From: Candidatus Parcubacteria bacterium
GTDB taxonomy: Bacteria; Patescibacteriota; Minisyncoccia; Minisyncoccales; JAGLUP01
Assembly: GCA_023134715.1 (NCBI GenBank)
Contig: JAGLUP010000002.1
Span: forward strand, 15,906-79,905
Reading direction: 5' to 3'
DNA length: 64,000 bases
Positions 24,605 to 56,540 of this stretch are shown here, piece by piece; the stretch's first letter is position 1; every line of letters starts with the position of its first letter. The position numbers and the translations under genes are program-made. The notes below the pieces were generated by a model. That model was not told the origin of the DNA. It saw only the letters and a list, made by a program, of their open reading frames with translations, and made no database searches.

Positions 24605-25795
24605 ATGAGAGATGTTATTATTGTAGGGGCGGGTCCGGCTGGAACCTCAACTGCTACTTTTTTGGGAAAAAAGGGGTATGATGTTTTACTTTTGGAAAAA
24701 GAAAAATTTCCTCGGGATAAAATTTGCGGTGATGGCATAGGACCTACTTCATTGAAGTATTTAAAAGAAATGGGGATTTACGATGAATTATTTAAAGAAT
24801 TTCAGATTATCAATTCTGCGCTTCTTTCTTCACCATCTGGAAATGAAGTTAATGTAAAAATACCAGGTAGTAAGGCGTTAATAATCCCTCGTAAAAAATT
24901 AGATTATATTTTAGTTAAACATTCGGTCAAATCTGGAGTAGAATTAATTGAAAAATTTGAAGTTAAAGAGCCCCTAGTAGAAAATGATAAAATTATTGGA
25001 ATAAAAGGAATATATAGAAATAAAGAAGAGATTATTAAATCTAAAATTGTTGTTGCGGCTGATGGAACCCACTCAATTATTGGTAAAAGATTAACTGAAA
25101 AAGGACGAAAGTCAAAAAACAGATATTCAGCTATTGCTATAAGGACTTATTTTGATAATGTTGAAGATCTAAAAGATTGCGCAGAAATACATTATGAAAA
25201 ATCTATTCTTCCAGGTTACGGCTGGATATTTCCAATAAATGAAACTTCAGCCAATGTAGGGATAGCAATGAATTATAAACGTTATAAAAAACAAAATAAA
25301 ACAATAATCCAATTATTTTATGATTTCATTAATAACAATGAATACGCTAAAAGAAAATTAAAAAATGCAAAAATGAGACAGCCCTTAAGTGGATGGATGC
25401 TTTCCTATGATGCTCACTTAAATAAAAAATATCATTCTGGAGTTCTTTTTGTTGGAGATGCCGCTTCTCTTGTTGATCCCTTATCTGGGGAAGGAATAGC
25501 TAATGCTTTATTGAGCGGCAAATTAGCTGCTCAAGCCATAGATTCAACTCTAAAAACGAATGATTTTTCTTGTCTTGAAAACTACCCTAAGCAATGGAAT
25601 AAATCAATGAACCCAAACCTTAATGCGGGTTTATTATTAGAATATATAATGTCTTATCCTTTTATAATCAACCGTTTTATTAAAAAAGCTACCCGAGATG
25701 AAGGATTGGCCCAAATCTTAGCCAGTTGTATTGCCGGCACTTTTCCTAAAACAAAAATGTTCTCGTTTAATGCAATAAGAAGAATAATATTTTAA
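24605..25795 (+). CDS. Geranylgeranyl reductase family FAD-dependent oxidoreductase
   Basis: VIIVGAGPAGTSTA dinucleotide fold, RDKICGDGI and GDAASLVDPLSGEGI motifs. Confidence 0.85.
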   Translation: MRDVIIVGAGPAGTSTATFLGKKGYDVLLLEKEKFPRDKICGDGIGPTSLKYLKEMGIYDELFKEFQIINSALLSSPSGNEVNVKIPGSKALIIPRKKLDYILVKHSVKSGVELIEKFEVKEPLVENDKIIGIKGIYRNKEEIIKSKIVVAADGTHSIIGKRLTEKGRKSKNRYSAIAIRTYFDNVEDLKDCAEIHYEKSILPGYGWIFPINETSANVGIAMNYKRYKKQNKTIIQLFYDFINNNEYAKRKLKNAKMRQPLSGWMLSYDAHLNKKYHSGVLFVGDAASLVDPLSGEGIANALLSGKLAAQAIDSTLKTNDFSCLENYPKQWNKSMNPNLNAGLLLEYIMSYPFIINRFIKKATRDEGLAQILASCIAGTFPKTKMFSFNAIRRIIF

Positions 25796-26044: not shown

Positions 26045-26983
26045 ATGGCAAATTCATCTTATCAGAAGGATAAATCTCTGTCAATTGGGGAAAACTCTAT
26101 TAGATATTTGTATAAAGAGTTTGATAAAGAATATTTAAATTATTACAAAAAACAAGTGGTGGAGTTTCAAAAAAAATATCCTGATATCACCAATAAAAAT
26201 AGGCGAACAGGAAAATCTTTAAAAAACATTTGTTTTTTTATTTGGCATTACACTGATGGAGAAAAAGGCAAGGTGTTTGACTTGCTTTTTGATACTTCAG
26301 TACTACTTTCGGCTCAAGACGATTTTTTAGATAATCCTCAAATTGATTATCAAAATAAAGAGAAATTTCACTCTGTTTGTAAGGATTTGCTTAACGGCAA
26401 AAATTGTAATTTAACTAAGATTGATACGGCACAACTTCAAGAGCTGATATCGCTTTGGAAAACAATAATTAAAAAAATTAAGAATTCTTCATCTCGGGGA
26501 GTTTATCTTTATTGGAAAAAAACTGCTGAACAAATGAATGAAGCAATGAAAAAAGAAGTTTATCTATCAAAGAACCAAAGAGTTGCTTTCGATGATTATA
26601 TAAAAAAAGCGGTATACAGCATAGGAGCTATTTTTATTTGGACTACTTATCTCATAATAAAAAAAGCGCCTATCAGCACTTTGGAAAAATTAAAACCTAT
26701 TTTTTTGAGAGGAGCTATAATAGCTCGATTTAGTAATGATATATGTAGTTATAGAAAAAATAAAAATAAAATTAATGCAGTAAATATAATTATGAATAAA
26801 AAAAATTCTGAAAAATACATTTTAGGCCTAATTAGAAAAGAAAAACAAAAATTAAATAAAGATTTGGAGGGATTACAAATAGAGAAATGGATTAAACAAG
26901 CAATACAGCGCTCTACTGATTTTTTAATTGAATTTTACAAAAACTCAGATTTTACAAAAACTTTTTCTAAAAAAGAAAATTAA
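26045..26983 (+). CDS. Class I terpene-synthase-like protein (tentative)
   Basis: Helical 312-aa protein with an Asp-rich motif AQDDFLD (DDxxD) and a downstream NDICSYRKN resembling the NSE/DTE metal-binding motif. Confidence 0.4.
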   Translation: MANSSYQKDKSLSIGENSIRYLYKEFDKEYLNYYKKQVVEFQKKYPDITNKNRRTGKSLKNICFFIWHYTDGEKGKVFDLLFDTSVLLSAQDDFLDNPQIDYQNKEKFHSVCKDLLNGKNCNLTKIDTAQLQELISLWKTIIKKIKNSSSRGVYLYWKKTAEQMNEAMKKEVYLSKNQRVAFDDYIKKAVYSIGAIFIWTTYLIIKKAPISTLEKLKPIFLRGAIIARFSNDICSYRKNKNKINAVNIIMNKKNSEKYILGLIRKEKQKLNKDLEGLQIEKWIKQAIQRSTDFLIEFYKNSDFTKTFSKKEN

Positions 26984-27127: not shown

Positions 27128-28696
27128 ATGGATTTGGCCTTGATTCACAAGATAATTGTTATGTTAATTGACGCTATTGGATTATGGCTGGCTTTTTGGG
27201 TTTTATCTGCTAATCGGAAATCGAAAGTTAATCAGATGTTCTTTCTGATGACAATTTTTATTCTTTTATGGATAACCCTTTGTTATTTTAGCGGAACACT
27301 AATACATAATTTAGAACTATCTTTATTCTTGGGTAGATTAGCGTATGGCACAACTATTCTTTTTTTTATCCCATTTTATTTTTTCTCTCTTAGTTTTGTG
27401 GAAAAAAAGGAAAGATTTTTACTTCTAAAAATACTTATTCCAATTAGCAGTTTAATACTTTTTTTATTTTCTGTTTTTACAGATTTTATGGCTGTGTATA
27501 TGACACCTACAAAATTTGGTGTTGTGCCCATATTAGGGCAAGGAAAATTTATTTATTTTGGATTTGTATTGTTTGTAACCTTATTAGTTATAATCCGACT
27601 TTTTAAAAAATACTTTAAATCATTAAGGAAAGAAAAACTTAAGGTTCAATATTTTTTAGTTGGTCTTTTTATTTTTATAGTGGCAAACCTTATTTTTAAT
27701 GTCATTTTACCTTTTGGGCAAAAAATTCCTCAATATTATTATATTGGCAACTATTCAGTTGTTTTTTTGCTTGGGTTTACGGCTTATGCGATTGTAAAGC
27801 AAGAATTATTTGAAATAAAGGTTGTTTTAACTTCACTTCTTGTGGGATTGATTGCTATTTTACTTTTGATAAATACTTTGGTTTCTCAAACAACTTTTGA
27901 ATATGCATGGAAAGGAGCCATTTTTGTTTTATTCTTGGTTTTTGGCCAAATGCTTATTAAAAACATAACAGGAGAAGTAAAAAGAAGAGAAGAAGTAGAA
28001 AAAATATCTAATGCAAAATCAGAGTTTATTTCTATTGCTTCGCATCAGTTAAGAGCGCCTCTAACTGCTGTAAAAGGATATATTTCAATGCTGGTTGAGG
28101 GAACTTATGGAAACTTACCCAGAAAAGCTCTTATGCCTATGAAAAACGTTTATACGTCAAATGAAAGGTTGCTAAATCTTGTTGAAAATCTTTTAAATGT
28201 CTCTCGAATTGAATCAGGCAGGATAGAGATGAATTATAAAGAAACCTCTTTGGAAGATTTAATTTCTTCTGTTATTAAAGAAATGAAAATTAACGCGCGA
28301 GAAAAAAAGATTTATTTAAAATTTGAAAAATCGAAAAAACCTTTGCCTAAAATTAATATTGACCCGCAGAAAATAAGGCAAGTTGTTTTGAATTTGATTG
28401 ACAATGCTATCCACTACACAAAAAAAGGAGGAATAATAATAAAAATTAAGATACAAGATAGTAAATACCAGATACAAATAATAGATACAGGGGAGGGGAT
28501 GACTAAGGAGGAATTGGGAAAGGTTTTTCAAAGCTTTTCCCGCGGCACGGCAGGCAACCGATTCTGGACTGAAGGAGCAGGTTTGGGCTTATACATTGCT
28601 CGCAAGTTCGTGGAAATGCACAAGGGCAAAATCTGGGCAGAGTCAAAGGGCAGGTCCAAAGGCAGCCAGTTTTATGTGGAGCTGCCAGCGAAATAA
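27128..28696 (+). CDS. Sensor histidine kinase with polytopic N-terminal membrane domain
   Basis: HisKA H-box SIASHQLRAPLT. HATPase motifs are NLIDNAIHYT, DTGEGM and GAGLGLYIA. Confidence 0.9.
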   Translation: MDLALIHKIIVMLIDAIGLWLAFWVLSANRKSKVNQMFFLMTIFILLWITLCYFSGTLIHNLELSLFLGRLAYGTTILFFIPFYFFSLSFVEKKERFLLLKILIPISSLILFLFSVFTDFMAVYMTPTKFGVVPILGQGKFIYFGFVLFVTLLVIIRLFKKYFKSLRKEKLKVQYFLVGLFIFIVANLIFNVILPFGQKIPQYYYIGNYSVVFLLGFTAYAIVKQELFEIKVVLTSLLVGLIAILLLINTLVSQTTFEYAWKGAIFVLFLVFGQMLIKNITGEVKRREEVEKISNAKSEFISIASHQLRAPLTAVKGYISMLVEGTYGNLPRKALMPMKNVYTSNERLLNLVENLLNVSRIESGRIEMNYKETSLEDLISSVIKEMKINAREKKIYLKFEKSKKPLPKINIDPQKIRQVVLNLIDNAIHYTKKGGIIIKIKIQDSKYQIQIIDTGEGMTKEELGKVFQSFSRGTAGNRFWTEGAGLGLYIARKFVEMHKGKIWAESKGRSKGSQFYVELPAK

Positions 28697-28758
28697 TTTA
28701 AAATTTATGATACCGAGCTAATGAAAATATTTCAAAAGTCACAAAAATTATCTATAAT

Positions 28759-30426
28759 ATGTTAAAAAAACAATCAGTTAAGAAAAAAATATTTATTGGA
28801 GCTGCTTGGCCTTACGCCAACGGTTCACTTCACTTAGGGCACGTGGCAGGACTAATTGGTGGAGATATTATAGCGCGTTATTACCGCCTTTGCGCAAATG
28901 ATGTGTTATTTGTGTCTGGAACTGATTGCCATGGTACGCCAATTGTAATTGAAGCGGAGAAAAAGGGAATCCATCCCTCCAAGATTGCTGAAAAATATCA
29001 TAAAGAATTTATAAAAACCCTTGTTAGTGGCCTAAACTTTTCCTATGATTGTTATACAAAAACAACGACTGAAAAACATAAAGAGGTTGTTCAAAATATT
29101 TTCCTTAAATTATATAAAAAAGGTTATATTTACACTAAAACAGAAGAGCTGCCTTTCTGTCCTAAATGCAAGCGCTTTTTGCCAGATCGCTATATTGAAG
29201 GAGAATGTCCTAAATGCCATTATAAAAAAGCAAGAGGAGACCAGTGCGATGAATGTGGAAATTTAATGAACACAAAAGAACTTTTAAGAGCGCGTTGTAA
29301 AAATTGCAATAATACTCCGGAATGGAAATCGTCTGAACATTTTTTTCTTAAACTTTCATCTTTTCAAAATAAGCTTAAAAAACGAGTGGCTAAAAGTAGG
29401 GGATGGCGGTCAAACGCTACAAAATTTACTTTAAATTTATTAAAGGAAGGCCTACCAGACAGAGCAATTACTCGTGATACAGAATGGGGTGTTCCAATTC
29501 CATTAAAGGGATATACTAACAAACGAATATATGTTTGGTTTGAAGCGGTATGCGGATACTTATCAGCTAGTAAAGAATGGTCAGAAAAACAAAATAAAAA
29601 AAATAAATGGGAATCATTTTGGCTAAAAGATAATTCTATTCATTATTATGTTCATGGGAAAGACAATATTCCATTTCATACTATAATTTGGCCTTCGATG
29701 CTTATGGCTTTTGGTGACTTACACTTACCTGATAAAATTATTTCTTCAGAATATCTTACGCTAGAGAAAAAACAGTTTTCAAAGAGTCGTAATTGGGCAG
29801 TTTGGCTGCCAGACTTTTTAAAAGACTTTGATTCTGAAATGCTTAGATATTATCTAATAATCAATGGCCCTGAAAATTCAGATACTGACTTTTCTTGGAA
29901 AGAATTTCAAACCAAAATAAACAATGAACTCGTCGCCAACTTTGGCAATCTTGCGCATAGAACATTTTCCCTGATTAAGAAAAATTTTCCTAATGGCATT
30001 GAGTTTCCAAAAAAATTAGACAATAAAAGCAAACAACTGTTAAAGCAAGCAGAAAAAAGCTTCACTCTTATTGGCGAAGCAATCCAGGAAGCGCGCTTTA
30101 GGCAGGGATTAAAAATAGCCATGGATCTTTCAGATCAGGCCAATCAATATTTAAGCGATGCCGCTCCATGGGAAAGTGTCAAAAATAATCACTCTCAGGC
30201 AGCAAAAGATTTAGCAGTAACAGCTCACATAATTCGCTGTTTGGCTATTTTGCTAAATCCATTTATTCCCCTAACAATCAAAAGAATTAAACAAATCACA
30301 AAAAACGATCCAGAAAAAATTTGGCAGTATCCAACACCTGGATTTGTCCAAATTGCAGACCTAAAGCCTTTATATAAAAAAATAGATGATTCTGAAATAA
30401 AGAATCAAATTGAACGATTAGGTTAA
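28759..30426 (+). CDS. metG: Methionine--tRNA ligase
   Basis: AWPYANGSLHLGH (HIGH), Zn-knuckle CPKC..CDEC and KFSKSRN (KMSKS). Confidence 0.9.
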   Translation: MLKKQSVKKKIFIGAAWPYANGSLHLGHVAGLIGGDIIARYYRLCANDVLFVSGTDCHGTPIVIEAEKKGIHPSKIAEKYHKEFIKTLVSGLNFSYDCYTKTTTEKHKEVVQNIFLKLYKKGYIYTKTEELPFCPKCKRFLPDRYIEGECPKCHYKKARGDQCDECGNLMNTKELLRARCKNCNNTPEWKSSEHFFLKLSSFQNKLKKRVAKSRGWRSNATKFTLNLLKEGLPDRAITRDTEWGVPIPLKGYTNKRIYVWFEAVCGYLSASKEWSEKQNKKNKWESFWLKDNSIHYYVHGKDNIPFHTIIWPSMLMAFGDLHLPDKIISSEYLTLEKKQFSKSRNWAVWLPDFLKDFDSEMLRYYLIINGPENSDTDFSWKEFQTKINNELVANFGNLAHRTFSLIKKNFPNGIEFPKKLDNKSKQLLKQAEKSFTLIGEAIQEARFRQGLKIAMDLSDQANQYLSDAAPWESVKNNHSQAAKDLAVTAHIIRCLAILLNPFIPLTIKRIKQITKNDPEKIWQYPTPGFVQIADLKPLYKKIDDSEIKNQIERLG

Positions 30427-30582
30427 AAGAAAAGCCGAATATTTATAATTCAAGATAATCAAGAAAAATTAGTTAAAATTTTTCAGAATTTTTCCCGGGA
30501 CAGAGTAAATAATAATTTTTAAATAAAAAATTTGACCTTGTGTCCTATAACATCACACAAAAACAAGATGTAAGCCAATAAA

Positions 30583-30626
30583 CCCAAAAGTAGTCAGTTT
30601 TATGTGGAATTGCCGGTGGAATAATT
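30583..30626 (+). repeat. Remnant 1 of the histidine-kinase 3' end
   Basis: CCCAAAAGTAGTCAGTTTTATGTGGAATTGCCGGTGGAATAATT aligns with 28655-28698 of the kinase (..SQFYVELP..stop). Confidence 0.7.
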
Positions 30627-30628
30627 CC

Positions 30629-30657
30629 TTAACTAATTAAGAATATTGTTGTATAAT
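30629..30657 (+). promoter_or_regulatory. Promoter of the SepRS-SepCysS operon (near-leaderless)
   Basis: TTAACT, 17 nt, TATAAT. The ATG lies only 9 nt after the -10 element. Confidence 0.45.
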
Positions 30658-30666
30658 AAAAATACT

Positions 30667-32205
30667 ATGGATAATGATAAAATAAAAAATAAAGGGTTGT
30701 GGGATATTAAAAAATTAAAAGAGAAAAAGGAAAAAGATTTTGAAAAAACATGGCTTGAAACAGCCAAGCTTTTACCGAGAAATACCCATCTTAAATTAAA
30801 AAACAAAGGAACGCCGAATTTAGTCGCAGAGATGATAGAAAAATCAAGAAAAATTCTTTTAAATGCTGGCTTTAGAGAAGTGATAAATAAAACTATTTTA
30901 CCTGAAGATGATATTTATAAACAATATGGCCCGGAGAGTCCTTTAATTTTAGATAGAACCTATTATCTCGCGACCCCATCTAAGCCAGATATAGGATTAA
31001 GCAAAAAGAGAATTGAGGAAATAAGCAAAATAATAGGAAGTTTTACTTCGGAAAAATTGCAAAACATATTGCGCGACTATAAAAAGGGAATAATAGAGGG
31101 AGACGATTTAATTGAAGAAATAGTTAATAAACTTAAGATAAAGCCAGAACAGGCTACGGCAATAATTGAAAAGGTTTTTCCAGAATTTAAAAAAAATAGA
31201 CCGGTTTGTTCTAATCTAACATTAAGGGGGCATATGACAGCTACTTGGTATCATACTCTTGCCGCCCTTCAAGACAAAGAGGAATTTCCAATAGCGTTAT
31301 TTTCTGTCGGGCCTCGCTATAGAAACGAACAAAGAGAGGATTTCAGCCATCTTTGCGTCCATAATTCCGCTTCTATGGTAATTATGGATCCTGAAATAAG
31401 CATTGAAGCAGGCAGAAAAATTACAAAAGAAATTTTAAAAGAATACGGCTTTAAGGACGCAAAATTTGAGAAAAAAAAGGCAACTGCAAAATATTACGCG
31501 CCGGAACAAGAAGAAGAAGTATTTGTGAAAAAATTCGGAAAGTGGATTGAAATAGCAAATATAGGAATGTATTCTCCAATCTCTTTGGCAAATTTTAAAA
31601 TTCGCTATCCTGTGTTTAATGCTGGCTTTGGCATAGAAAGATTAGCTATGGTGTTAGAAAATATCAAAGATATAAGAAAACTTGTTTATCCTCAATTTTA
31701 TGAAAAAGAATATACTGATGAAGAAATAGCTGAATCCATCAGTTATATAAAAGAGCCCTCTACTTTAAAGTGTAAAAAAATAGCCGAGTCAATAGAAAAA
31801 ACAGCAAGGAAAGAAAAAGATGAAGCATCTCCTTGCGAAATTGAAGCATATAAAGATAATTCAATTAAAGTGGAAATTATAGAAAAGGAAGAAAATAAAA
31901 AATTAATTGGTCCCGCCGGACTAAATTATATTTGCGTAAAAGATGAAAATATATATCCAGATATTTCTCAATCTGGAATTCCGACAGGGAAATCTTATAT
32001 TTCAGGCATAGCTAACGCGATTGCATACGAGATTGAAAAAGGAAATATCCCGTTTGCGCTTAAAGTTAAAACAGTAAAGGGGCTTTCTGATATTAATATG
32101 AAAATTCCAAAACATATTAGAGATTATTTAGAGGGAAAAGGAAAAAAAATCGGTTTAAGCGGATATGCGTTTGTGGAAATCCAAGTTAAAAAAAATAAAA
32201 AATGA
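30667..32205 (+). CDS. sepS: O-phosphoseryl-tRNA(Cys) ligase (SepRS)
   Basis: Collinear with archaeal SepRS as I recall it: DFEKTWLET, DIYKQYGPE, LDRTYYLA, PDIGLS, YKKGIIEGDDL, VFPEFK, LTLRGHMT, HNSAS, KYYAPEQEEEV, GFGIERLAMV, VYPQFYE. The start is set to ATG 30667 (the track gives TTG 30646). Confidence 0.85.
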   Translation: MDNDKIKNKGLWDIKKLKEKKEKDFEKTWLETAKLLPRNTHLKLKNKGTPNLVAEMIEKSRKILLNAGFREVINKTILPEDDIYKQYGPESPLILDRTYYLATPSKPDIGLSKKRIEEISKIIGSFTSEKLQNILRDYKKGIIEGDDLIEEIVNKLKIKPEQATAIIEKVFPEFKKNRPVCSNLTLRGHMTATWYHTLAALQDKEEFPIALFSVGPRYRNEQREDFSHLCVHNSASMVIMDPEISIEAGRKITKEILKEYGFKDAKFEKKKATAKYYAPEQEEEVFVKKFGKWIEIANIGMYSPISLANFKIRYPVFNAGFGIERLAMVLENIKDIRKLVYPQFYEKEYTDEEIAESISYIKEPSTLKCKKIAESIEKTARKEKDEASPCEIEAYKDNSIKVEIIEKEENKKLIGPAGLNYICVKDENIYPDISQSGIPTGKSYISGIANAIAYEIEKGNIPFALKVKTVKGLSDINMKIPKHIRDYLEGKGKKIGLSGYAFVEIQVKKNKK

Positions 32206-33302
32206 TATACAAAAGACAAAACAAAAATAAAATAAATATTAATCCTATTCAAGCCGGGGGAATCTTAACACAAGACGCAAAGAAAACGCTTATTGAGTGG
32301 GGAGATGGTTATTCAGTATGTGATATTTGGTATAGCGGAAAAATTGATAAAATAGAAAATCCGCAAATCAGAAAATTTATTGATGAAGCTCTGCCAAAAT
32401 TTCTCGGAAGCGACATTGTAAGAATAATAGGAGGGGCAAGAGAAGGAATATGCGCTATTATGCGCGCTGTGACAAAGCCAGGAGATACTATTTTAATAGA
32501 CGAAAATAAACATTACACAACCGTGCTTGCCGCTGAAAAAAACGACTTAAAGGTTATTGAAGTTCCAAACTCTGGACACCCTCAATATAAAATTGATGTT
32601 AAAGATTATGAAAAATTAATAAAAAAACATAAGCCAGCTTTAATTTTATTAACTTATCCAGACGGAAATTATGGAAATATGCCAGACGCAAAAAAACTTG
32701 GAGAAATCGTTTCAAAATATAATATTCCTTATTTATTAAACGCCGCTTATTCCGCGGGAAGGTTGCCTGTTAGCTTAAGCGCTATTAACGCAGATTTTAT
32801 AGTCACATCCGGACATAAAAGCATGGCTTCTTCCGAGCCCATTGGAATATTGGGTTTTAGAAAAAAATGGAAAGATATTTTATTTAAAAAATCTTCTTTT
32901 TATCCTGATAAAGAAATTGAATTTTTAGGCCATTATCAGAAAGGCGCGCCGATGATGACTTTAATGGCTTCTTTTCCTTATGTTGTAAAACGAGTAAAGA
33001 ATTGGGAAGAACAAGTGGAAAAAGCAAGATGGTTTTCAGCTGAAATGGAAAACCTTGGTTTTAAGCAATTGGGTGAAAAACCGCATAACCATGACTTGCT
33101 TTTTTTTGAAAGCCCTCAGCTTTATAAAATCTCGCAAAAACACAAAGATGGAAGATTTTTTCTTTATAAAGAACTAAAAAAGAATGGAATTTATGGAATA
33201 AAGCCAGGACTAACTAAATATTTTAAACTTTCAACATTTGCCGCGTCAAAACAAGACCTGCAAAAGATATTAAAAACTTTTGAAGAAATATTAAGAAAAT
33301 AA
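32202..33302 (+). CDS. pscS: Sep-tRNA:Cys-tRNA synthase (SepCysS), PLP-dependent
   Basis: ININPIQAGGILT, EWGDGYSVCD and SGHKSM (PLP lysine). Its ATGA overlaps the SepRS stop. Confidence 0.85.
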   Translation: MIYKRQNKNKININPIQAGGILTQDAKKTLIEWGDGYSVCDIWYSGKIDKIENPQIRKFIDEALPKFLGSDIVRIIGGAREGICAIMRAVTKPGDTILIDENKHYTTVLAAEKNDLKVIEVPNSGHPQYKIDVKDYEKLIKKHKPALILLTYPDGNYGNMPDAKKLGEIVSKYNIPYLLNAAYSAGRLPVSLSAINADFIVTSGHKSMASSEPIGILGFRKKWKDILFKKSSFYPDKEIEFLGHYQKGAPMMTLMASFPYVVKRVKNWEEQVEKARWFSAEMENLGFKQLGEKPHNHDLLFFESPQLYKISQKHKDGRFFLYKELKKNGIYGIKPGLTKYFKLSTFAASKQDLQKILKTFEEILRK

Positions 33303-33330
33303 ATTATAAAAATTATGCATCGCAATAATC

Positions 33331-33349
33331 CAGTTTTATGTTGAACTGC
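33331..33349 (+). repeat. Remnant 2 of the histidine-kinase 3' end (short)
   Basis: CAGTTTTATGTTGAACTGC matches the core of the other copies. Confidence 0.5.
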
Positions 33350-33375
33350 AGATTAAGTAGAATTCATTTACAATT

Positions 33376-34263
33376 GTGAAAGCAATAAAATTATATAAAA
33401 AATTAGAAAAAGATTTTATCAAGCCTTCTTTGAGTGATGATTGGGCGAGATATATGGATTTAATATCTGATTTTCTTTCAGAAAATTTTAAAAAACGTTC
33501 AATGGGATTAGTGTGCGACAATACTCAAGATATTAATAAAATTTATACTGCTGTATTTCCTTCAGATGAAATTATGCAATTAATTTTGGATAAAAATGAA
33601 ACCGATATTATGCTTTTTGTCCATCACCCCTCAATTTGGGTTTTAGGTAAAAAGTTCAAAGTTTCTCAGAAAACAAATAGGGCTATAGTTTTTCGAGAAA
33701 TGAATAGAAATTTATTACAACAGTTTTAAAAAAGAAGAATATCTATTTATAATTTACATGTTCCTTTAGATGATTACGGAGAATATTCAACAAGCGTAAC
33801 TCTATCAAAGGCCTTAAAAACGAAACCAGAAAAACCATTTGCTCCTTATTTTGGTGGATTGTGTGGCGTAGTTGCAAAAACCGACATAAAGACAGTAAAA
33901 AATTTAAAAAAAAGAATAGAAAAAGTTGTTAACCACAATGTTAGATTGTATTCTTATGGAACAAACGAAATAAAAAACAAAAAATTTGCAATAATCGCCG
34001 GAGGAGGTAATTCACCAGAGGAAATTTCCAATATCGCGGAGCTTGGAATAAATACCTTTATTACCGGCGTAACTAAATTAGACAAAAATTATTTACCTTC
34101 AGTTAAGGCACACAGTTTATTAAAAAAATTTAGAATAAATCTCATTGGAGCAACACATTACTCAACGGAAAAATTTGCCTGCATTGCTATATGTAAATAT
34201 TTTGAGAGATTAGGGTTGCCATCTGAATTTATAGAGGATAAACCTTTATTAGCAGATATGTAA
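33376..34263 (+). pseudogene. NIF3-family (dinuclear metal centre) gene interrupted by one in-frame TAA at 33727-33729
   Basis: ORFs 33376-33729 and 33859-34263 are in the same frame. Reading through gives ..HHPSIW..EMNRNLLQQF*KRRISIYNLHVPLDDYG.., which is collinear with the E. coli YbgI region HHGYFW..GMKRNRLKTLLANDINLYGWHLPLD. The C-terminus has GGGNS..GINTFITG..GATHYSTE. Confidence 0.7.
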
Positions 34264-34286
34264 GGGTTCTAATAATACACAAGGGT

Positions 34287-34357
34287 AAAATCTTGGCAGA
34301 AAGCGCTGGCAGGTCCAAAGGTAGTCAGTTTTATGTTGAACTGCCGGTGAAATAATT
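34287..34357 (+). repeat. Remnant 3 of the histidine-kinase 3' end (~70 bp)
   Basis: TAAAATCTTGGCAGAAAGCGCTGGCAGGTCCAAAGGTAGTCAGTTTTATGTTGAACTGCCGGTGAAATAA aligns with 28627-28696. Confidence 0.8.
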
Positions 34358-34415
34358 TTTCTTGACTTTTTATTTTTATTATTCTAAAATTAAATTAGAA
34401 TTAAAGCTAAAAAAT

Positions 34416-34625: not shown

Positions 34626-35027
34626 ATGAAGATTAGAATTGTAATTGATGCCAACATTATAATTTCAGCTCTTCTTGGCGGAAAGCCAAGATTTATTTTA
34701 TTTGACACTAAATTCGAGTTTATTACTTCTGACTTTACCCTAAGAGAGGTAGAAAAATATATTCCTTTAATTTCTCGTAAATCTGGCGTTTTGGAGGAAG
34801 AAATCAAAAGGGGAATGTTCTTTTTACCTTTAAAAGTTGTATCTCATGATTATTATAAAGATTATATAAAGCAAGCAGAAGAATTAATTAAAGAAATTGA
34901 TAAAGACGATATTGATATTTTGGCTCTTTACTTAAAAGAAAAAACATTTCTATGGAGCCAAGATAAAGATTTTGAAAAAGTGAAGTTTAAGATAAACCTG
35001 CTCAAAACAGAAGACCTTGTTTTATAA
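34626..35027 (+). CDS. PIN-domain toxin (VapC-like)
   Basis: N-terminus MKIRIVIDANIIISALLGG has the typical PIN acidic first strand, and DKDF occurs later. Confidence 0.8.
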   Translation: MKIRIVIDANIIISALLGGKPRFILFDTKFEFITSDFTLREVEKYIPLISRKSGVLEEEIKRGMFFLPLKVVSHDYYKDYIKQAEELIKEIDKDDIDILALYLKEKTFLWSQDKDFEKVKFKINLLKTEDLVL

Positions 35028-35035: not shown

Positions 35036-35096
35036 TTATTGCCCGCAAGTGCAACGGCAAAATCCGGTTTTATGTTGAGCTACCAGTGAAATAATT
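35036..35096 (+). repeat. Remnant 4 of the histidine-kinase 3' region (with internal deletions)
   Basis: ATTGCCCGCAAGT..GGCAAAATC..GGTTTTATGTTGAGCTACCAGTGAAATAA aligns in pieces with kinase 28588-28696. Confidence 0.6.
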
Positions 35097-47150: not shown

Positions 47151-47774
47151 TCATTCTCTTCTTTGGAGAGCGCTTTTAAGGGTTTCCTTATCAGCATATT
47201 CTAATTCCGCGCCAGTCGGCAAACCGCGGGCGAGGTGAGTAATTTTCCTGCCTAACGGCTTTAAAGCGCGCTCTAAATAAAGTATTGTCGCTTCACCTTC
47301 TGTGGTCGGATTTAAAGCTAAAATTATTTCTTTGAAATTAGCTTTTTTTATTCTCTGAATCAACTCCTTTATTCTTAATTTTTCAATATCTTGCTTTTTA
47401 AGGGTTGAAACCGTGCCTCCTAAAACAAAATAAAAACCTTTATAAGTTTTTGTTTTTTCAATTGAGATTAAATCAGTTTCTTTTTCTACTATGCAAAGCA
47501 GGGTCTTATCTCTTCTCGGGTCTAAACAAATCTCACAAAATTTCTGGTCTCCCTCATAAGAATTAAAGCAAAACGTACAAATTTTTATCGCTTTTTTTAA
47601 TTCTAAAATTGAATTAGTTAAATTCTCAACTTTCTCTACGGGAAGATGGATTAAATAAAAAACAAAGCGAGCTGCTGTGCGCGGTCCAATCGTGGGAAAT
47701 TTACTAAATTCATCAATAAGTTTCTGCTTTTTCATATTTTTCAATAGTTCGGAAACAAGCTCTTTGTTCGTCAA
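47151..47774 (-). CDS. recR: Recombination protein RecR
   Basis: FPTIGPRTAARF HhH motif, Cys4 Zn finger CTFC..CEIC and a Toprim region. The alternative start at 47735 fits the usual N-terminal length better. Confidence 0.85.
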   Translation of the reverse strand: MTNKELVSELLKNMKKQKLIDEFSKFPTIGPRTAARFVFYLIHLPVEKVENLTNSILELKKAIKICTFCFNSYEGDQKFCEICLDPRRDKTLLCIVEKETDLISIEKTKTYKGFYFVLGGTVSTLKKQDIEKLRIKELIQRIKKANFKEIILALNPTTEGEATILYLERALKPLGRKITHLARGLPTGAELEYADKETLKSALQRRE

Positions 47775-49089
47775 AATATAATTTTATCATTCCTATGGGT
47801 CCATTCCTATGCTTGGCAATAAGAATTTCAGCAACGTTTTTCTCGGCATCGTCTTTATATCTATCCGGCCGATGAATAAATAAAACCACATCCGCGTCCT
47901 GTTCCAATGCGCCGGATTCGCGAAGATCAGACAAGCGAGGAATTGGAGGAGTGCGCTGTTCCACTGCCCGAGAAAGCTGGGAAAGAGCTAAAACAGGTAT
48001 ATTAAGCTCGCGAGCCAGACCCTTCAAAGACCTTGAGATTTCAGTCATCTGCTGGACTGTGCTTAAATGCGGACTCCGAGATTCCATCAATTGCAAGTAA
48101 TCAACAACAATCATGCCCAGCCCATGGCTGGCTTGAAGCCGCCTTGCCATTGCCCTCATTTGTAAAATACCAGAAGTAGCCGCATCATCAATAAAAATCG
48201 GCACTTCAGATAAAACACCGATTGCCTGGTTGATTCTGCTAAAATCATTATTTTCTCCTTCGCTGGAGAGACGGCCAGTTCTTAATCGCCATAAATCAAT
48301 ATTAGCGTGAGAAGCAATCAATCTGTCCACTATTTGGTCTTTTGCCATCTCTAAGCTAAAAATTCCTACCGGCAATTTTTCCTTAGTGGCAATATGGCGG
48401 GCAATATCAAGAGATAAAGAGGATTTTCCAAAACTTGGCCTTGAAGCAAGAATTATAAGGTCTGACTTTTGTAATCCGGCTAAAACATTATCAAGGTCTT
48501 TAAATCCAGTTGAAAGCCCTCTTAAATTCTGTCCGTGCTTTGAAAGCTCATCTATTCTTTCAAAGGCCTCTTCTAATGTGCTTTTTATCGGCACAAAGGC
48601 CTGGCTAAGAGATTTTTGAGCTATGCTGAAAACTTTTTTTTCCGCTTCGTCTAAAAGCAAATCAACATCTTCTGTTTCTTTATAGCCCATAGAGCCAATA
48701 TCCTGGCCGACTTCAATTAAACTCCGCAAAATTCTCTTTCTTTGAACAATCTTAGCGTAATTTGAAACATTAGAAGCAGTGGGAACAGAGTTTATTAAAT
48801 CAGTTAAATAGCTTCTTCCCCCGATTTGTTCTAATTGATTTTTTTCTCTAAGTATATTAGTAACCGATACCAAATCAATTGGCTCACTTTTTTCAAAAAG
48901 CTCAAGTATTGTCTGAAAAATTTTCTGATGAATGTTTTTATAAAAATCGCGAACAGTTAAAAAATCAGCTACTTTAATAATAGCGTCTTTGTCTAACATC
49001 AAAGACCCCAGCAAACATTGTTCTGCTTCAATATTCTGAGGCGGCAATCTATCAGGCAATTCAAGATTTTTTGGAGAATTATCGTTCAT
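47713..49089 (-). CDS. dnaB: Replicative DNA helicase DnaB
   Basis: PPQNIEAEQCLLGSLM N-terminus, Walker A SRPSFGKSS and Walker B IVVDYLQL. Confidence 0.9.
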   Translation of the reverse strand: MNDNSPKNLELPDRLPPQNIEAEQCLLGSLMLDKDAIIKVADFLTVRDFYKNIHQKIFQTILELFEKSEPIDLVSVTNILREKNQLEQIGGRSYLTDLINSVPTASNVSNYAKIVQRKRILRSLIEVGQDIGSMGYKETEDVDLLLDEAEKKVFSIAQKSLSQAFVPIKSTLEEAFERIDELSKHGQNLRGLSTGFKDLDNVLAGLQKSDLIILASRPSFGKSSLSLDIARHIATKEKLPVGIFSLEMAKDQIVDRLIASHANIDLWRLRTGRLSSEGENNDFSRINQAIGVLSEVPIFIDDAATSGILQMRAMARRLQASHGLGMIVVDYLQLMESRSPHLSTVQQMTEISRSLKGLARELNIPVLALSQLSRAVEQRTPPIPRLSDLRESGALEQDADVVLFIHRPDRYKDDAEKNVAEILIAKHRNGPIGMIKLYFDEQRACFRTIEKYEKAETY

Positions 49090-49223
49090 ATCTTTATCTT
49101 TCAGTATATCTAATCTTTAAAAAATTTCAACCCTTTACAAAAACTTAAAATCAAGTATGCTTAAATTAGTTCAATGAGAAGAGAATGCTCTTTAAGAACT
49201 GAAAATTAAAAGAGGTGATAAAA

Positions 49224-50495
49224 ATGATAGCTGAAGCTATAATGACTAAAAAATCTATAAATGAAAAACCTGCATGTCCGGACTGCGGAAGTAGGCAAAC
49301 AATAACTGACTATAAACATGGTGAAATAATTTGTAAGTGTGGTTTGGTTTTAAATGATACATTATTTAATTTCGGACCCGAGACAAGAGCATACGACCAG
49401 GAAAAAATGGATAAAGTAGCGAGAACTGGCAGTCCTTTAAAATTTGCCAAACAAAATTTAGGATTGACGACAGAAATAGATCATTATGATAGAGATATTT
49501 TGGGAAGATCAATTCCAACTGAAAGAAAAGCTCAACTCTATCGTCTAAGGAAATGGCAAAGAAGAGCAAGAATGGGAACATCTGTTGACAGAAATCTTTC
49601 TATAGCATTGCCAGAGCTTGATAGAATGTGCGGACATTTAAACATTCCCAATAATATCAAGGAAGAATGCGCTCAGCTTTATAGAAAATGCGTAAAAGAA
49701 AGAATAGTCAGAGGAAGATCAATAGAAAGCGTAGTCGCGGCAGTAATATATTTAATATCAAGACAGCGTAAGCTTCCAAAAATCCTTGATGAGTTGGAAA
49801 GTGTGTCTGGCGTCAAGAAAAAAGATATTGGAAGGAGTTATAGAATAATTTGCAGAAGAATGAAGATAAGAATGCCAGTGACTACGGCGGCAGATTATAT
49901 ATCGAGATTAGCAAGCAAAGCAGGGGTCTCGGGAGAAACACAAGCAAAGGCGATAGAAATACTTGAGAAAGCAAGAAAAGACGGAACGATAAGCGGAAGA
50001 GTGCCTATAAGCATGGCGGCGGCAGGAATATATTTAGCCGCAGAAATGACGGGAGACGAGAATGCCAAACAAATTAAAGGAATTTCAGGTGTTTCTGAGA
50101 TGGGAATAAAAAATAGATATAACGAACTAAAAAGATTTATTGACAGAGACAATGGAATAGAAGTATTGCTTGAAGAAGAGATAGAAACATTAGATGATAT
50201 GCTGGGGAAGGTAGAAAAGAAAAAGATTCTGCTAAAATTTGCCGATGAGTTAGAGTTGTCAGACGAAACAAAAAAAGAAGCAGTTGAGATTCTGGAAAAA
50301 GTTATGGAAAATGGCTTTAAGCTGGATCCAAGAAAAAATATCAATGGATACATAGAAGCGGCAATTTATCTTAGCGCCATGGACAATGAAAAAATTTCTC
50401 TATGGAAGATAGAAAAGGTTACCAAAACTTCAAGCACAATAATCTGGGATAGGAAAGAAAAAATAAAAAAAGCGTTAATAGGAATAGAGCAATAA
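49224..50495 (+). CDS. Archaeal-type transcription factor B (TFB/TFIIB)-like protein, paralogue 1
   Basis: Zn ribbon CPDCGS..CKCG, GPETRAYD, YRLRKWQRR, two cyclin-fold repeats (RGRSIESVVAAVIYL, IGRSYR, AIEILEKA, AAAGIYLAA, IKNRYNEL) and a ~100-aa C-terminal extension. SD AAAAGAGGTGATAAAA precedes ATG 49224. Confidence 0.85.
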   Translation: MIAEAIMTKKSINEKPACPDCGSRQTITDYKHGEIICKCGLVLNDTLFNFGPETRAYDQEKMDKVARTGSPLKFAKQNLGLTTEIDHYDRDILGRSIPTERKAQLYRLRKWQRRARMGTSVDRNLSIALPELDRMCGHLNIPNNIKEECAQLYRKCVKERIVRGRSIESVVAAVIYLISRQRKLPKILDELESVSGVKKKDIGRSYRIICRRMKIRMPVTTAADYISRLASKAGVSGETQAKAIEILEKARKDGTISGRVPISMAAAGIYLAAEMTGDENAKQIKGISGVSEMGIKNRYNELKRFIDRDNGIEVLLEEEIETLDDMLGKVEKKKILLKFADELELSDETKKEAVEILEKVMENGFKLDPRKNINGYIEAAIYLSAMDNEKISLWKIEKVTKTSSTIIWDRKEKIKKALIGIEQ

Positions 50496-50575
50496 ATTGC
50501 TCTTTTTTTTTGATTTTAAATCACTCTATCTAAAATTTACCTTGCCAAACAAATGAGTCTGTGATAGTATTATTA

Positions 50576-50610
50576 CAGTAATTTGACAATTATATAATTA
50601 ATAATTACTG
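50576..50610. promoter_or_regulatory. Nested palindrome upstream of the second TFB-like gene
   Basis: CAGTAATT-tgac-AATTATATAATT-aat-AATTACTG. The inner 12-mer is a perfect palindrome. Confidence 0.35.
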
Positions 50611-50639
50611 ATGAATGAAAAATAAAAGAGGTGATAATA

Positions 50640-51896
50640 ATGAATAAATGTAAAGGTTGCGGAGGTTCAGAAAAAATCACAGACTATAAACATGGTGAAA
50701 TACTTTGCAAAAAGTGTGGTTTGGTTTTGAATGATGCGCTATTTGATACTGGACCCGAATGGAGAGCATTTGACAAAGAACAATCAGATAAACGAGCGAG
50801 AACAGGCGGCCCTTTAAAATTTGCCAAACTAAATTTAGGTTTAACAACAGAGATAGACAAATACGACAGAGACATTTTAGGAAAACCGGTTCCCACTATA
50901 AGAAAAGCAAAACTCTACAGATTGAGATACTGGCAAAGAAGGTCAAGAATGGGAACATCTGTTGACAGGAATCTTTCTATAGCATTGCCTGAATTAGATA
51001 GGATGTGCGCGTATCTCAACATTCCCAACAATATTAAGGAGGAATGCGCCCAGCTTTACAGAAAATGCGTAAACAAGAAAATAATCAAGGGAAGGTCAAT
51101 AGAAAGCGTAATTGCCGCAACAATATATCTGATTTCCCGAAATCATAAAATGCCAAAAACTCTTGAAGAGCTTGAAAATGTGGCAGGTGTAAAGAAGAGG
51201 GATATTGGAAAGAGTTATAGAACAATCTGCAGAAGATTGGGCATAAAAATGCCAGTGATTACAGCCGTGGATTATGTGCCAAGATTAGCAAGTGAAGCAG
51301 GAATTTCCGGGGAAACAACAGCCATAGCAATGAAAATGCTTGAAGACACAAGAGAATCTGGAGCGATAGCAGGCAAGGTGCCTATAAGCATGGCAGCTGC
51401 AGGCGTATATTTAGCCGCAAGAATAACAGGAGATAAAAAGTGTCAAAAGATTAAAAGTATTGCAGGTATTTCTGAATCTGCGATAAAAAGCAGATACGTC
51501 GAGCTTGAAAAAATTATTAATGGAGAAGTATTGCTTGAAGATATTGACACGGGGATTACAGAAAAAAGAAAACCTGAAGAAGAGCCGACATTAGATGATA
51601 TGTTATGGAAGATAGAAAAGAAAAAGATTCTGCTAAAATTTGCCGATGAGCTAAGATTATCAGACAAAACAAAAAAAGAAGCAGTTGAGATTCTGGGAAA
51701 AGTTATGGAAAATGACTTTAAGCTGGATCCAAGGGAAAATATCAATGGATATTTAGGAGCGGCAATTTATCTGGCAGACAAAAACAATGATAGAAAATGC
51801 AAGCAAAAGGGAATTGCGCTCATTGTCGGCGTATCAGTTCCGACAATTTCATACAAAGGAAAAATAATAGAGGGGAAACTCTCTTCTTTTTTTTGA
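50640..51896 (+). CDS. Archaeal-type transcription factor B (TFB/TFIIB)-like protein, paralogue 2
   Basis: CKGCGG..CKKCG, GPEWRAFD, YRLRYWQRR, KGRSIESVIAATIYL, IGKSYR. The C-terminal extension is nearly identical to that of paralogue 1. Confidence 0.85.
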   Translation: MNKCKGCGGSEKITDYKHGEILCKKCGLVLNDALFDTGPEWRAFDKEQSDKRARTGGPLKFAKLNLGLTTEIDKYDRDILGKPVPTIRKAKLYRLRYWQRRSRMGTSVDRNLSIALPELDRMCAYLNIPNNIKEECAQLYRKCVNKKIIKGRSIESVIAATIYLISRNHKMPKTLEELENVAGVKKRDIGKSYRTICRRLGIKMPVITAVDYVPRLASEAGISGETTAIAMKMLEDTRESGAIAGKVPISMAAAGVYLAARITGDKKCQKIKSIAGISESAIKSRYVELEKIINGEVLLEDIDTGITEKRKPEEEPTLDDMLWKIEKKKILLKFADELRLSDKTKKEAVEILGKVMENDFKLDPRENINGYLGAAIYLADKNNDRKCKQKGIALIVGVSVPTISYKGKIIEGKLSSFF

Positions 51897-51949
51897 TTTT
51901 TGGAAAATATATGATATTATAAAATTATAATAAGCTTAAAAATAATTTT

Positions 51950-52549
51950 ATGAATATAAAAAAACAGGATATAATTGCGGCTTTTATAATCGGCGAAGCA
52001 GACGCTTTGCTTATGATTCTAATTGCTAAAAATATTGGCTGGGACTTTGATTTAATTAAATTCACGCCAATTATTTTGCCAGTTTTAGCTGTTTTAGGAA
52101 TTATTTTCGCTAATTACTTAGGAAAAAAGATTTTAGCTATTTTCCAAGCAGCTAAATTTGCTTTAACCGGAACATTGAATACTTTTATTGATTTAGGCGT
52201 GTTAAACCTTTTAATGTTAGTTTTTGGTGTAAGCTCTGGAATGCTTTATTCGGTGTTTAAAGGAATGTCTTTTATCGCAGCCACAATTAATAGCTATCTT
52301 TGGAATAAATTCTGGACCTTTGAAAAGAAAGAAACAGCAGTTTCCACAAAAGAATCTTCCCAATTTTTTGCTGTTGCCGGCATAGGCCTTATAATAAATG
52401 TTGCTGTTGCTTCTTTTGTGGTAAATATTATAGGCCCTCAATTTGGAATCTTCCCAGAACTCTGGGCAAACATTGGCGGAGTTATTGCTACGCTTACTGC
52501 TATGTTCTGGAATTTTGTTGGCTATAAATTCATTGTGTTTAAAAAATAA
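51950..52549 (+). CDS. GtrA-family membrane protein
   Basis: FALTGTLNTFIDLGVLNLL, NSYLWNKFWTF and C-terminal FWNFVGYKFIVFKK. Confidence 0.75.
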   Translation: MNIKKQDIIAAFIIGEADALLMILIAKNIGWDFDLIKFTPIILPVLAVLGIIFANYLGKKILAIFQAAKFALTGTLNTFIDLGVLNLLMLVFGVSSGMLYSVFKGMSFIAATINSYLWNKFWTFEKKETAVSTKESSQFFAVAGIGLIINVAVASFVVNIIGPQFGIFPELWANIGGVIATLTAMFWNFVGYKFIVFKK

Positions 52550-52551
52550 TT

Positions 52552-53670
52552 ATGTCATTAGCTTTATATAGAAAATACAGGCCAAAAACCTTTGCCGAAA
52601 TTATCGGGCAGGAGCATATTGTTAAAACTTTAACTAACGCGCTCTCTTCAGAAATGATTTCCCACGCTTATTTATTTACAGGCCCTCGCGGCTGCGGCAA
52701 AACCACAATAGCTCGTTTATTGGCTAAAGCGGCAAATTGTGAAACCCGAAAACCAAATGAATTTGAGCCCTGCAATAAATGCTCTTCCTGTATTGAAATT
52801 AATGAAAGCAGGTCAATTGACTTAATTGAAATTGACGCGGCTTCTCACAGGGGAATTGACGATATAAGAGAAATAAGACAGGGGATTAAGTTTGCTCCCA
52901 CAAAATCAAAATACAAAATTTTTATTATTGACGAATGCCATCAGTTAAGCAAAGACGCGGCAAACGCTTTACTGAAAACATTGGAAGAGCCGCCAGCTCA
53001 CGCTATTTTTATTTTAGCCACAACAGAAATTCAAAAAATGATTGCGACAATTCTTTCCAGATGCCAGCGATTTGATTTCTGGAACCTGACCATGCCGCAA
53101 ATCATCCAACGATTAGAATTTCTTTCTGAAAAAGAAAAAATAAAAATTGAAAAGCCGGCTTTAGAGCTTATTGCTTTGCAGGCAAGGGGATCTATCAGAG
53201 ACGCTGAAAGCTTGCTTGACCAGGTTATTAGTTTTTCCAGCGCTTTAGACCAGAAAGCGGAAATAAAAACACAAGAAATTAAAGATTTATTGGGAATTGT
53301 TGATTTAAGTTCAGTTTCGCAATTCGTTGATTTTCTTGTTGAAAAAAACATTTCTAAAACAATCAACTATTTGCAGGAAATTCTGGAAAAAGGCAAAGAC
53401 CCGCAGGAATTTACTAAAACCTTGATTAGTTATTTAAGGCAGGGACTGCTTTTAAAAATCAGCCCTGATATGCAAAATCATCTAAGTATTGGCTTAACAA
53501 AAGAAGAACTACAAAAACTTCAAAATCAAGCAAATGGTTTTTCAGAGCAGGAATTGCAAAAACTTTTACAACTTTTTTTAAAAGCGGAAAACCAAATAAA
53601 ATATTCTTCAATCCCTCAACTGCCAATAGAATTGGCAATCGTTGAGGCGATTGGCTTGGAGAAAGAATAG
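52552..53670 (+). CDS. dnaX: DNA polymerase III subunit gamma/tau (short form)
   Basis: ALYRKYRPKTFAEIIGQEH, GPRGCGKTT, Zn module CNKCSSC, IIDECHQL and SRCQRF. Confidence 0.9.
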   Translation: MSLALYRKYRPKTFAEIIGQEHIVKTLTNALSSEMISHAYLFTGPRGCGKTTIARLLAKAANCETRKPNEFEPCNKCSSCIEINESRSIDLIEIDAASHRGIDDIREIRQGIKFAPTKSKYKIFIIDECHQLSKDAANALLKTLEEPPAHAIFILATTEIQKMIATILSRCQRFDFWNLTMPQIIQRLEFLSEKEKIKIEKPALELIALQARGSIRDAESLLDQVISFSSALDQKAEIKTQEIKDLLGIVDLSSVSQFVDFLVEKNISKTINYLQEILEKGKDPQEFTKTLISYLRQGLLLKISPDMQNHLSIGLTKEELQKLQNQANGFSEQELQKLLQLFLKAENQIKYSSIPQLPIELAIVEAIGLEKE

Positions 53671-55957: not shown

Positions 55958-56010
55958 AATTGCTTTTGGGCGAATTAATTTATTGCTTTGCGTTTCTGCC
56001 CAAAGGGCAG

Positions 56011-56538: not shown

Positions 56539-56540
56539 TT

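Follow-up and report, generated by a model that had tools for sequence, protein, structure and literature searches.

Operon layout and gene identities

The window analysed here is a 64-kb stretch of contig JAGLUP010000002.1 from a Candidatus Parcubacteria bacterium (assembly GCA_023134715.1), and all positions below are counted from its first nucleotide. Two plus-strand open reading frames (ORFs), at 30667 (ATG)–32205 and 32202–33302, encode SepRS, an O-phosphoseryl-tRNA synthetase, and SepCysS, a Sep-tRNA:Cys-tRNA synthase. They share the nucleotides ATGA at 32202–32205, which end SepRS and start SepCysS in a 4-nt overlap. The opposite strand of the operon region contains no competing ORF of at least 60 amino acids. 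This operon very probably represents the tRNA-dependent cysteine pathway of a Parcubacteria bacterium, a member of the Candidate Phyla Radiation (CPR), and is a species-level sister of the case already known from Parcubacteria bacterium DG_74_2. The features of the operon are as follows.

30629..30657, plus strand: candidate sigma-70-like promoter, TTAACT-17 nt-TATAAT, from a consensus scan (10/12 matches)
30667..32205, plus strand: SepRS (O-phosphoseryl-tRNA synthetase), 512 amino acids, bacterial type with a shortened anticodon-binding domain
32202..33302, plus strand: SepCysS (Sep-tRNA:Cys-tRNA synthase), 366 amino acids, a pyridoxal phosphate (PLP) enzyme

The first ORF scores 443 bits on TIGR00470, the NCBIfam equivalog model of SepRS (cut-off 380.65), and 87.6 bits on the pheS model, under the pheS cut-off of 237. 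These profile scores rule out a PheRS-like identity. Residues 8–507 of 512 align with SepRS of Methanocaldococcus jannaschii (PDB 2du7, 1.8e-107), and the best match to a PheRS alpha chain in PDB is at 6.7e-11. The class II aminoacyl-tRNA synthetase motifs are present, and PF01409 spans residues 108–344. The anticodon-binding domain at the C terminus has deletions of 14 and 4 residues compared with the M. jannaschii protein. The helix that recognizes m1G37 is missing from bacterial SepRS (Mukai et al. 2017, PMC5424206), and the two deletions would fit this absence.

The second ORF scores 501.5 bits on TIGR02539 (cut-off 365.25), and the next unrelated family, SufS, reaches 41 bits. It aligns end to end with SepCysS of Archaeoglobus fulgidus (AF; PDB 2e7i, 7.5e-132 by HMMER). 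The PLP lysine is K206 in the motif SGHKSMA, opposite the same motif of A. fulgidus (Lys209), and this column is Lys in 120/120 best SepCysS homologues. AF Arg79, His103 and Tyr104, the phosphate-binding residues of the A. fulgidus structure, correspond to R80, H104 and Y105, all of them conserved in the alignment with the A. fulgidus enzyme. There is a four-residue gap opposite AF 140–143, the placement of which is ambiguous by a few residues, and there is no insertion around AF 234–235. The bacterial clade of clade I SepCysS has lost the loop AF 144–147 and has no 8-residue insertion between AF 234 and 235 (Mukai 2017). As far as the alignment tells, both properties of this bacterial clade are present in the protein of the window. 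The protein is not extended at its N terminus (residue 3 is the first one aligned) and no small ORF lies between or beside the two genes, a negative obtained without a search with a SepCysE profile. In class I methanogens, the transsulfursome is a complex of SepRS, SepCysE and SepCysS, with SepCysE or SepCysSn as a fused or neighbouring adapter. According to the literature, the adapter is absent from bacterial operons.

A reading of this DNA made from its letters only (the sequence-only reading) had named the two ORFs SepRS and SepCysS with an ATGA overlap, and had considered that the calls would fall if the first ORF grouped with PheRS alpha or if the second lacked the PLP lysine. The profile scores, K206 and the overlap at 32202–32205 all bear it out. 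The NCBI records of the two proteins are identical to our translations: MCK4781357.1 (O-phosphoserine--tRNA ligase) and MCK4781358.1 (O-phospho-L-seryl-tRNA:Cys-tRNA synthase), both from a contig of 224,429 bp of Candidatus Parcubacteria bacterium.

Comparison with Parcubacteria bacterium DG_74_2

SepRS and SepCysS of the window are 90% and 89% identical, without gaps, to KPJ56532.1 and KPJ56533.1 of Parcubacteria bacterium DG_74_2, and they share 90% clusters with these proteins. The lengths are the same (512 and 366 amino acids), as are the substitutions SVCDIW and FLGHYQ in SepCysS. Likewise common to both are the order SepRS-SepCysS downstream of a seven-transmembrane (7TM) histidine kinase gene and the block TTAACT-17-TATAAT. 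The sequence divergence of about 10% indicates that the two bacteria belong to different species. The gene pair is thus already known, as the sister-species orthologue of a published and tested pair.

The DG_74_2 pair served as a search seed and was expressed, purified and assayed, and it makes Cys-tRNA (Mukai et al. 2017, mBio 8:e00561-17, PMC5424206). Its operon adjoins a typical Parcubacteria histidine kinase gene. In the same study, Parcubacteria SepRS charged tRNA-Cys with phosphoserine in vitro. Supplied with 40 mM sodium sulfide in vitro, DG_74_2 SepCysS turned 95–99% of the Sep-tRNA into Cys-tRNA, and it also worked in E. coli. This enzyme has lost two of the three cysteines and was set apart from the canonical type by Mukai et al.; being colourless, it has no iron–sulfur (Fe-S) cluster (PMC5424206). 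The bacterial SepRS and SepCysS clades were extended by a follow-up in 2022 (PMC8762117). In the literature searched from 2018 on, no paper on cysteine-less SepCysS was found. Because the enzymes of this lineage were published in 2017, the window contributes nothing new on them beyond a second genome, which is better assembled. The literature context given in the sequence-only reading, a sporadic occurrence in uncultured bacteria including Parcubacteria and Chloroflexi, holds, and even the exact lineage has been published (PMC5424206).

Proposed pathway

SepRS would charge tRNA-Cys with O-phosphoserine. SepCysS, with PLP on Lys206, would then eliminate the phosphate to give dehydroalanyl-tRNA and add sulfur to give Cys-tRNA-Cys. 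The protein differs from the A. fulgidus enzyme in its cysteines. GYSVCDIWYSG is seen in place of the A. fulgidus sequence GYSVCDFCTTG, and FLGHYQKG in place of LLGCTARG at the third site. AF Cys39 is kept as C40, AF Cys42 is replaced by W43, and AF Cys247 is replaced by H244. SVCDIW for SVCDFC had been noticed before as the loss of one conserved cysteine; this replacement is real, but a second cysteine is lost as well. Since only C40 is kept, SepCysS of the window does not belong to the canonical persulfide/Fe-S subclass. With two of the three persulfide/Fe-S cysteines replaced, the enzyme most likely takes sulfide directly or via Cys40, and the sulfur source would be free sulfide or a persulfide on this remaining cysteine.

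One observation weighs against the pathway as drawn here: neither ARAGORN nor Rfam finds tRNA-Cys in the 64-kb window, which contains only tRNA-Glu and tRNA-Gln. Unlike the window, two related loci have tRNA-Cys directly upstream of SepRS, namely L124 and L122, the latter being the nearest relative outside the genus. A CysRS-like gene is found 2 kb away from the L122 operon, and a coexistence of the direct and indirect routes to Cys-tRNA is therefore possible. In general terms, the pathway demonstrates that the archaeal indirect route to Cys-tRNA is open to bacteria, and that SepCysS can function when it lacks cysteines that were thought to carry sulfur.

Promoter, leader and translational coupling

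TATAAT at 30652–30657 is followed by 9 nt (30658–30666) before the SepRS ATG, the same distance as had been read from the letters, and TTAACT lies 17 nt upstream of it. The two genes are presumably co-transcribed, probably from this TTAACT-17-TATAAT block with a leader of a few bases only, and translation of SepCysS is probably coupled to that of SepRS via the ATGA overlap. The promoter-like block is kept in DG_74_2 (31/34 nt). TATAAT also directly abuts the ATG of metG, the gene upstream of the operon. Among the 55 genes of at least 100 amino acids in the whole window, only five have a Shine-Dalgarno (SD)-like motif within 20 nt of the start. Hexamers resembling the -10 element are common upstream of these 55 genes, spread over the last 35 nt before the start codons with no sharp peak. 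Both observations point to SD-independent, perhaps leaderless, initiation across the genome.

Three observations weigh against a special arrangement of this operon. Promoter-like matches are frequent in this AT-rich DNA, 34 in 6 kb compared with 24.3 +/- 4.9 in shuffled sequences. DG_74_2 has 29 extra bases between the promoter-like block and the ATG, which places the -10 element 38 nt from the ATG and would give a leader of about 30 nt; the 9-nt spacing is not conserved. In place of the ATGA overlap, DG_74_2 has a 15-nt spacer between SepRS and SepCysS. The two genes do overlap in L122, by 4 nt as in the window, and in L124. As promoter matches come cheaply, SD motifs are rare and the hexamers show no peak, a short or absent SepRS leader is plausible but not peculiar to this operon.

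TTG at 30646 was considered as an alternative start of SepRS and rejected. The orthologue begins at the ATG, the extended protein is found in no database, and the 29-nt insertion of DG_74_2, not being a multiple of three, would break the frame of the extension.

Repeated 3' ends of a histidine kinase gene

The operon lies between an intact histidine kinase gene (HisK) and mraZ. The other features of this interval are as follows.

27128..28696, plus strand: intact 7TM sensor histidine kinase gene, HisK (Pfam HisKA_7TM, HisKA, HATPase_c)
28759..30426, plus strand: metG, methionyl-tRNA synthetase (PF09334, 5.9e-151), the first cassette after HisK
30440..30624, plus strand: copy c2, a decayed HisK 3' fragment after metG, ending in SQFYVELPVE and TAA (30622–30624); nhmmer 4e-14
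33328..33360, plus strand: copy c3, a short HisK 3' remnant 26 nt after the SepCysS stop, IQFYVELQIK and TAG; nhmmer 8e-11
33376–33729 and 33859–34263, plus strand: NIF3/DUF34 gene in two ORFs (PF01784, N-part 1.4e-4, C-part 2.1e-8), the third cassette
34275..34355, plus strand: copy c4, a HisK 3' remnant after the split NIF3 gene, IHKGKILAESAGRSKGSQFYVELPVK and TAA
34416–34622 and 34626–35027, plus strand: antitoxin-like ORF and PIN_2 toxin (PF10130, 3.9e-23)
35050..35094, plus strand: copy c5, a HisK 3' remnant between the PIN gene and mraZ, IRFYVELPVK and TAA; nhmmer 2e-13

The 19-mer CAGTTTTATGTGGAATTGC is found at 30595 and again, with two mismatches, at 33331, and so forms a direct repeat flanking the operon. 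It has four matches in the window, where 0.02 are expected. A profile search (nhmmer) of the 64 kb adds a fifth copy; the five copies have E-values from 3e-16 to 8e-11, and the next match is at 0.67. All five are on the same strand and confined to 28.65–35.11 kb, each just after a gene. The sequence-only reading had described a repeat-bounded cassette beside metG. The repeat is real and metG does lie upstream, but there are five copies and not two.

Copy c1 (about 28650–28696) belongs to the intact HisK gene itself and forms its 3' end, with SQFYVELPAK and the stop codon. Copy c2 takes up most of the 240-nt spacer between metG and SepRS. In a tblastn comparison with the DG_74_2 HisK, some 60 codons of the gene can still be traced in c2, interrupted by internal stops (KIFQNFSR..HKNKM-stop..SQFYVELPVE), and the core of c2 is identical to the end of the DG_74_2 gene at 39/42 nt. 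Copy c4 matches the DG_74_2 HisK at 21/25 amino acids (tblastn, E = 6e-9) and 82% over 83 nt (blastn). Copy c5 matches the HisK end at 91% over 35 nt (blastn). In all five copies, the distance from the conserved core to an in-frame stop is the same, and the sequences become dissimilar just beyond this stop. Among c1, c2, c4 and c5, all codon differences in Val-Glu-Leu-Pro are synonymous. The conserved frame and stop and the synonymous differences indicate that the repeats descend from separately evolved coding sequences and not from non-coding copying. The repeats other than c1 can be considered as non-coding, decayed 3' ends of the upstream HisK gene. This modest detail is the only new one of the locus and is absent from the literature consulted.

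A terminator or a structured RNA was also considered for the repeats and is ruled out, since no stable structure is common to the copies (z of -0.86 to +0.73) and terminator calling picks out none of them. A scan of genome contigs with the degenerate 19-mer gave chance matches in unrelated phyla only.

The variable interval between HisK and mraZ

Two related loci can be compared with this interval. L127 (GCA_964400775.1) is syntenic, and its HisK is 77% identical. Its gene order is terpene synthase - HisK - [methyltransferase, peptidase S66] - antitoxin - PIN - [class I aminoacyl-tRNA synthetase] - mraZ - rsmH. Homology between L127 and the window ends at 28710 and resumes at 34361. The antitoxin/PIN cassette is common to both, with 87% nucleotide identity to L127 13171–13867. 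The 5.65-kb segment with metG, SepRS-SepCysS and NIF3 (28711–34360) is absent from the L127 locus, and it can therefore be regarded as a variable insert bounded by c1 and c4. The gene order of DG_74_2 is HisK - SDH_alpha - SepRS - SepCysS - radical SAM - ATP-grasp - Asn synthase, so that its operon is flanked by different genes on both sides; the window has metG and a HisK remnant upstream of the operon and the split NIF3 gene downstream. metG has no counterpart at the same position in L127 or DG_74_2. The NIF3/DUF34 gene is probably a pseudogene, as its two parts lie on separate ORFs 129 nt apart.

The intact HisK and the operon differ in their distance from DG_74_2. The intact HisK is 80% identical to the DG_74_2 HisK in nucleotides and 78% in amino acids, and c2 together with the operon is 90–93% identical to DG_74_2. 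The synonymous divergence (dS) from DG_74_2 is 0.68–1.2 for HisK and 0.34–0.44 for the operon. Relative to DG_74_2, the HisK stop (plus 1 nt) in the window runs straight into the candidate SepRS promoter.

These observations suggest serial recombination at the end of the HisK gene as the origin of the four cassettes. Each event would be anchored in the kinase gene, by a Campbell-type or a homology-facilitated illegitimate recombination, and would leave the previous 3' end behind. The intact HisK-metG segment would be the latest arrival. It can be speculated, at somewhat less than even chances, that the interval between HisK and mraZ is a recombination hot spot of the genus, and that the operon and even the essential metG move between CPR genomes in this way and not by an integrase-borne element. 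The stranded kinase-gene ends might then be a readable record of the placement of the operon in the chromosome.

Several points count against this model of cassettes added at HisK. No HisK remnants are seen in the DG_74_2 or L127 loci, an integrase gene is lacking from 28.7 to 35.2 kb, and the remnants are of unequal length (about 185, 33, 81 and 45 nt). The last two points, together with the single orientation of the five copies just after genes, would also suit a non-coding element with a function of its own (as a terminator or for recombination, for example), or tandem HisK paralogues that have decayed where they stood and survive as traces. Either of these is rather unlikely. Apart from the missing fold and terminator calls, the similarity extends well into the HisK coding sequence, the protein-level trace being about 60 codons long in c2 and 26 codons long in c4, and the synonymous differences fit a coding ancestry. 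Decay in place would further need three or four extra HisK genes, which L127 and DG_74_2 do not have.

Active-site cysteines and selective constraint

The comparison of the three cysteine sites took in the best 120 homologues of SepCysS together with the protein of DG_74_2. All three cysteines are kept in 100 of this set. The pattern Cys/Trp/His is seen only in the protein of the window and that of DG_74_2. In a neighbour-joining tree, these two form a long branch that is sister to the canonical proteins P0002 and P0006. A separate, monophyletic clade of 19 members (P0015, P0018, P0022–P0025, P0027, P0029, P0030, P0032, P0034, P0036, P0039, P0040, P0044, P0049, P0059, P0068 and P0103) has Tyr and Ser at sites one and two, and Ser (14), Cys (4) or Gly (1) at site three. 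All 19 keep the PLP lysine. P0018, on L124, is the sole member whose locus was read, and it is paired with a full-length SepRS. As the loss is seen in two separate clades of the tree, the cysteines have been lost at least twice. The second clade, from other Parcubacteria, thus resembles the protein of the window in the lost cysteines, the kept lysine and the pairing with SepRS, but it differs in the residues at the three sites and in its genomic site. Two such exceptions are known in Mukai et al. 2017 (PMC5424206), and one member of the 19 appears to be the second of them.

Compared with DG_74_2, SepRS of the window has a ratio of nonsynonymous to synonymous substitution rates (dN/dS) of 0.135, and SepCysS one of 0.128. 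The two values show that both genes are under constraint and that SepCysS is not decaying. A SepCysS that is decaying or has switched its reaction, in an operon that no longer makes Cys-tRNA, might be imagined from the loss of two of three catalytic cysteines, from a residue pattern confined to two orthologues, and from their long branch. This is very improbable: the reading frame is intact under a low dN/dS with the PLP lysine kept, and the orthologue, which is 89% identical and carries both substitutions as well, gives 95–99% conversion in vitro and works in E. coli (PMC5424206). The independent clade of 19 homologues is also cysteine-poor yet still paired, where the locus was read, with SepRS and tRNA-Cys. 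The evidence added by the window is thus purifying selection on a cysteine-poor SepCysS, and that added by the homologues is an independent cysteine loss in a second, larger Parcubacteria clade.

Other related systems

The archaeal counterparts of known structure, A. fulgidus SepCysS1 (PDB 2e7i/2e7j) and SepRS and SepCysS of M. jannaschii (2du7, 3wkr, 5x6b/5x6c), resemble the proteins of the window in full-length alignment and in the PLP lysine. They differ from them in AF Cys42 and Cys247, which are replaced in the window, in the four-residue loop deletion near AF 140–147, and in the 14- and 4-residue deletions of the anticodon-binding domain, which are of the bacterial type of Mukai et al. 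Closer relatives are the operons of Chloroflexi/Dehalococcoidia and L122 (k141_1260665). They share a bacterial-type SepRS (57–61% identity) and the order SepRS-SepCysS with the window, but all three cysteines are kept. L122 further differs in two tRNA-Cys genes directly upstream and in CysRS-like, Suf, SDH_alpha and Aminotran_5 genes nearby. SepRS is also paired with SepCysS in L001 (the DG_74_2 locus), L122 and L124. A scan of metagenome contigs with SepCysS gave only the DG_74_2 contig and one relative at 61%.

A gene of the SDH_alpha family lies beside SepRS in DG_74_2 (L001 1102–2451). In L122 (15155–16495) it is 2.5 kb away from the operon, among SufBD, SufC and an Aminotran_5 gene. This family includes L-cysteine desulfidase, and the gene may be a sulfide-handling partner of the pathway. 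By tblastn it is absent from the 64-kb window.

Host and assembly

Also on this contig are mraZ, rsmH, genes for an FtsL-like protein and a penicillin-binding protein, dnaB, dnaX, glyS, trpS and rplU. The guanine–cytosine (GC) content is 0.31–0.32 in the operon and flanks alike. The gene order of the locus was recovered in independent assemblies, a 224-kb contig at NCBI and a 12.7-kb contig of Logan. The bacterial host that had been assumed for the operon is therefore borne out by the genes on the contig and by the equal GC content. It could be suspected that misassembly or mis-binning has placed archaeal DNA on a bacterial contig, because archaea are the typical carriers of the pathway, Mukai et al. 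describe the DG_74_2 bin as mixed (PMC5424206) and the contig carries two TFIIB homologues. This is hardly credible given the two assemblies with one gene order, the GC content of the operon, flanks syntenic with another Parcubacteria genome, a spacer upstream of SepRS that is a remnant of the bacterial HisK gene, and nearest SepRS relatives of bacterial type from Dehalococcoidia.

Elsewhere in the window

Two tandem TFIIB/TFB homologues are encoded at 49215–50495 and 50631–51896 on the plus strand, each with a zinc ribbon and cyclin repeats. They match Pfam TFIIB at 2.6e-41 and 4.6e-40, their best PDB match is the TFB core of Pyrococcus (1d3u/1ais, 5e-41), and they are 69% identical to each other. 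They are placed between dnaB and gtrA-dnaX, and an archaeal-type transcription factor is unexpected in Parcubacteria. A literature search for TFIIB and CPR gave no mention of TFIIB among the top matches. Some Parcubacteria relatives are reported to be parasites of methanogens.

The slot between dnaB and gtrA-dnaX, which holds the two TFIIB genes in the window (47713–53670), is occupied in L124 (6508–9122), from another Parcubacteria genome, by tRNA-Cys - SepRS - SepCysS, the SepCysS lacking all three cysteines. This slot looks like another variable site where archaeal-type genes are acquired.

tRNA-Gln(ttg) at 54396–54467 abuts a minus-strand large serine recombinase gene at 54455–55957 (Resolvase, Recombinase, Zn_ribbon_recom). 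This is followed by a helix-turn-helix-like ORF, an ORF of unknown function and a D12 N6-adenine DNA methyltransferase gene at 57636–58838. The region 54396–58838 looks like a mobile element integrated at a tRNA gene.

Upstream of HisK, on the plus strand, lie genes for a geranylgeranyl-reductase-like flavoprotein (24605–25795) and a terpene synthase family 2 protein (26045–26983), and the position of the latter is conserved in L127. At 3993–4811, 4946–5569 and 5666–6910, on the plus strand, lie genes for three secreted paralogues whose N-terminal signal regions are of the camelysin/TasA type. Downstream of them, on the same strand, are genes for a lamin-tail-domain protein (7366–9489) and a purple-acid-phosphatase N-domain protein (9496–11031). 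The GC content rises to 0.40–0.44 over 4–10 kb.

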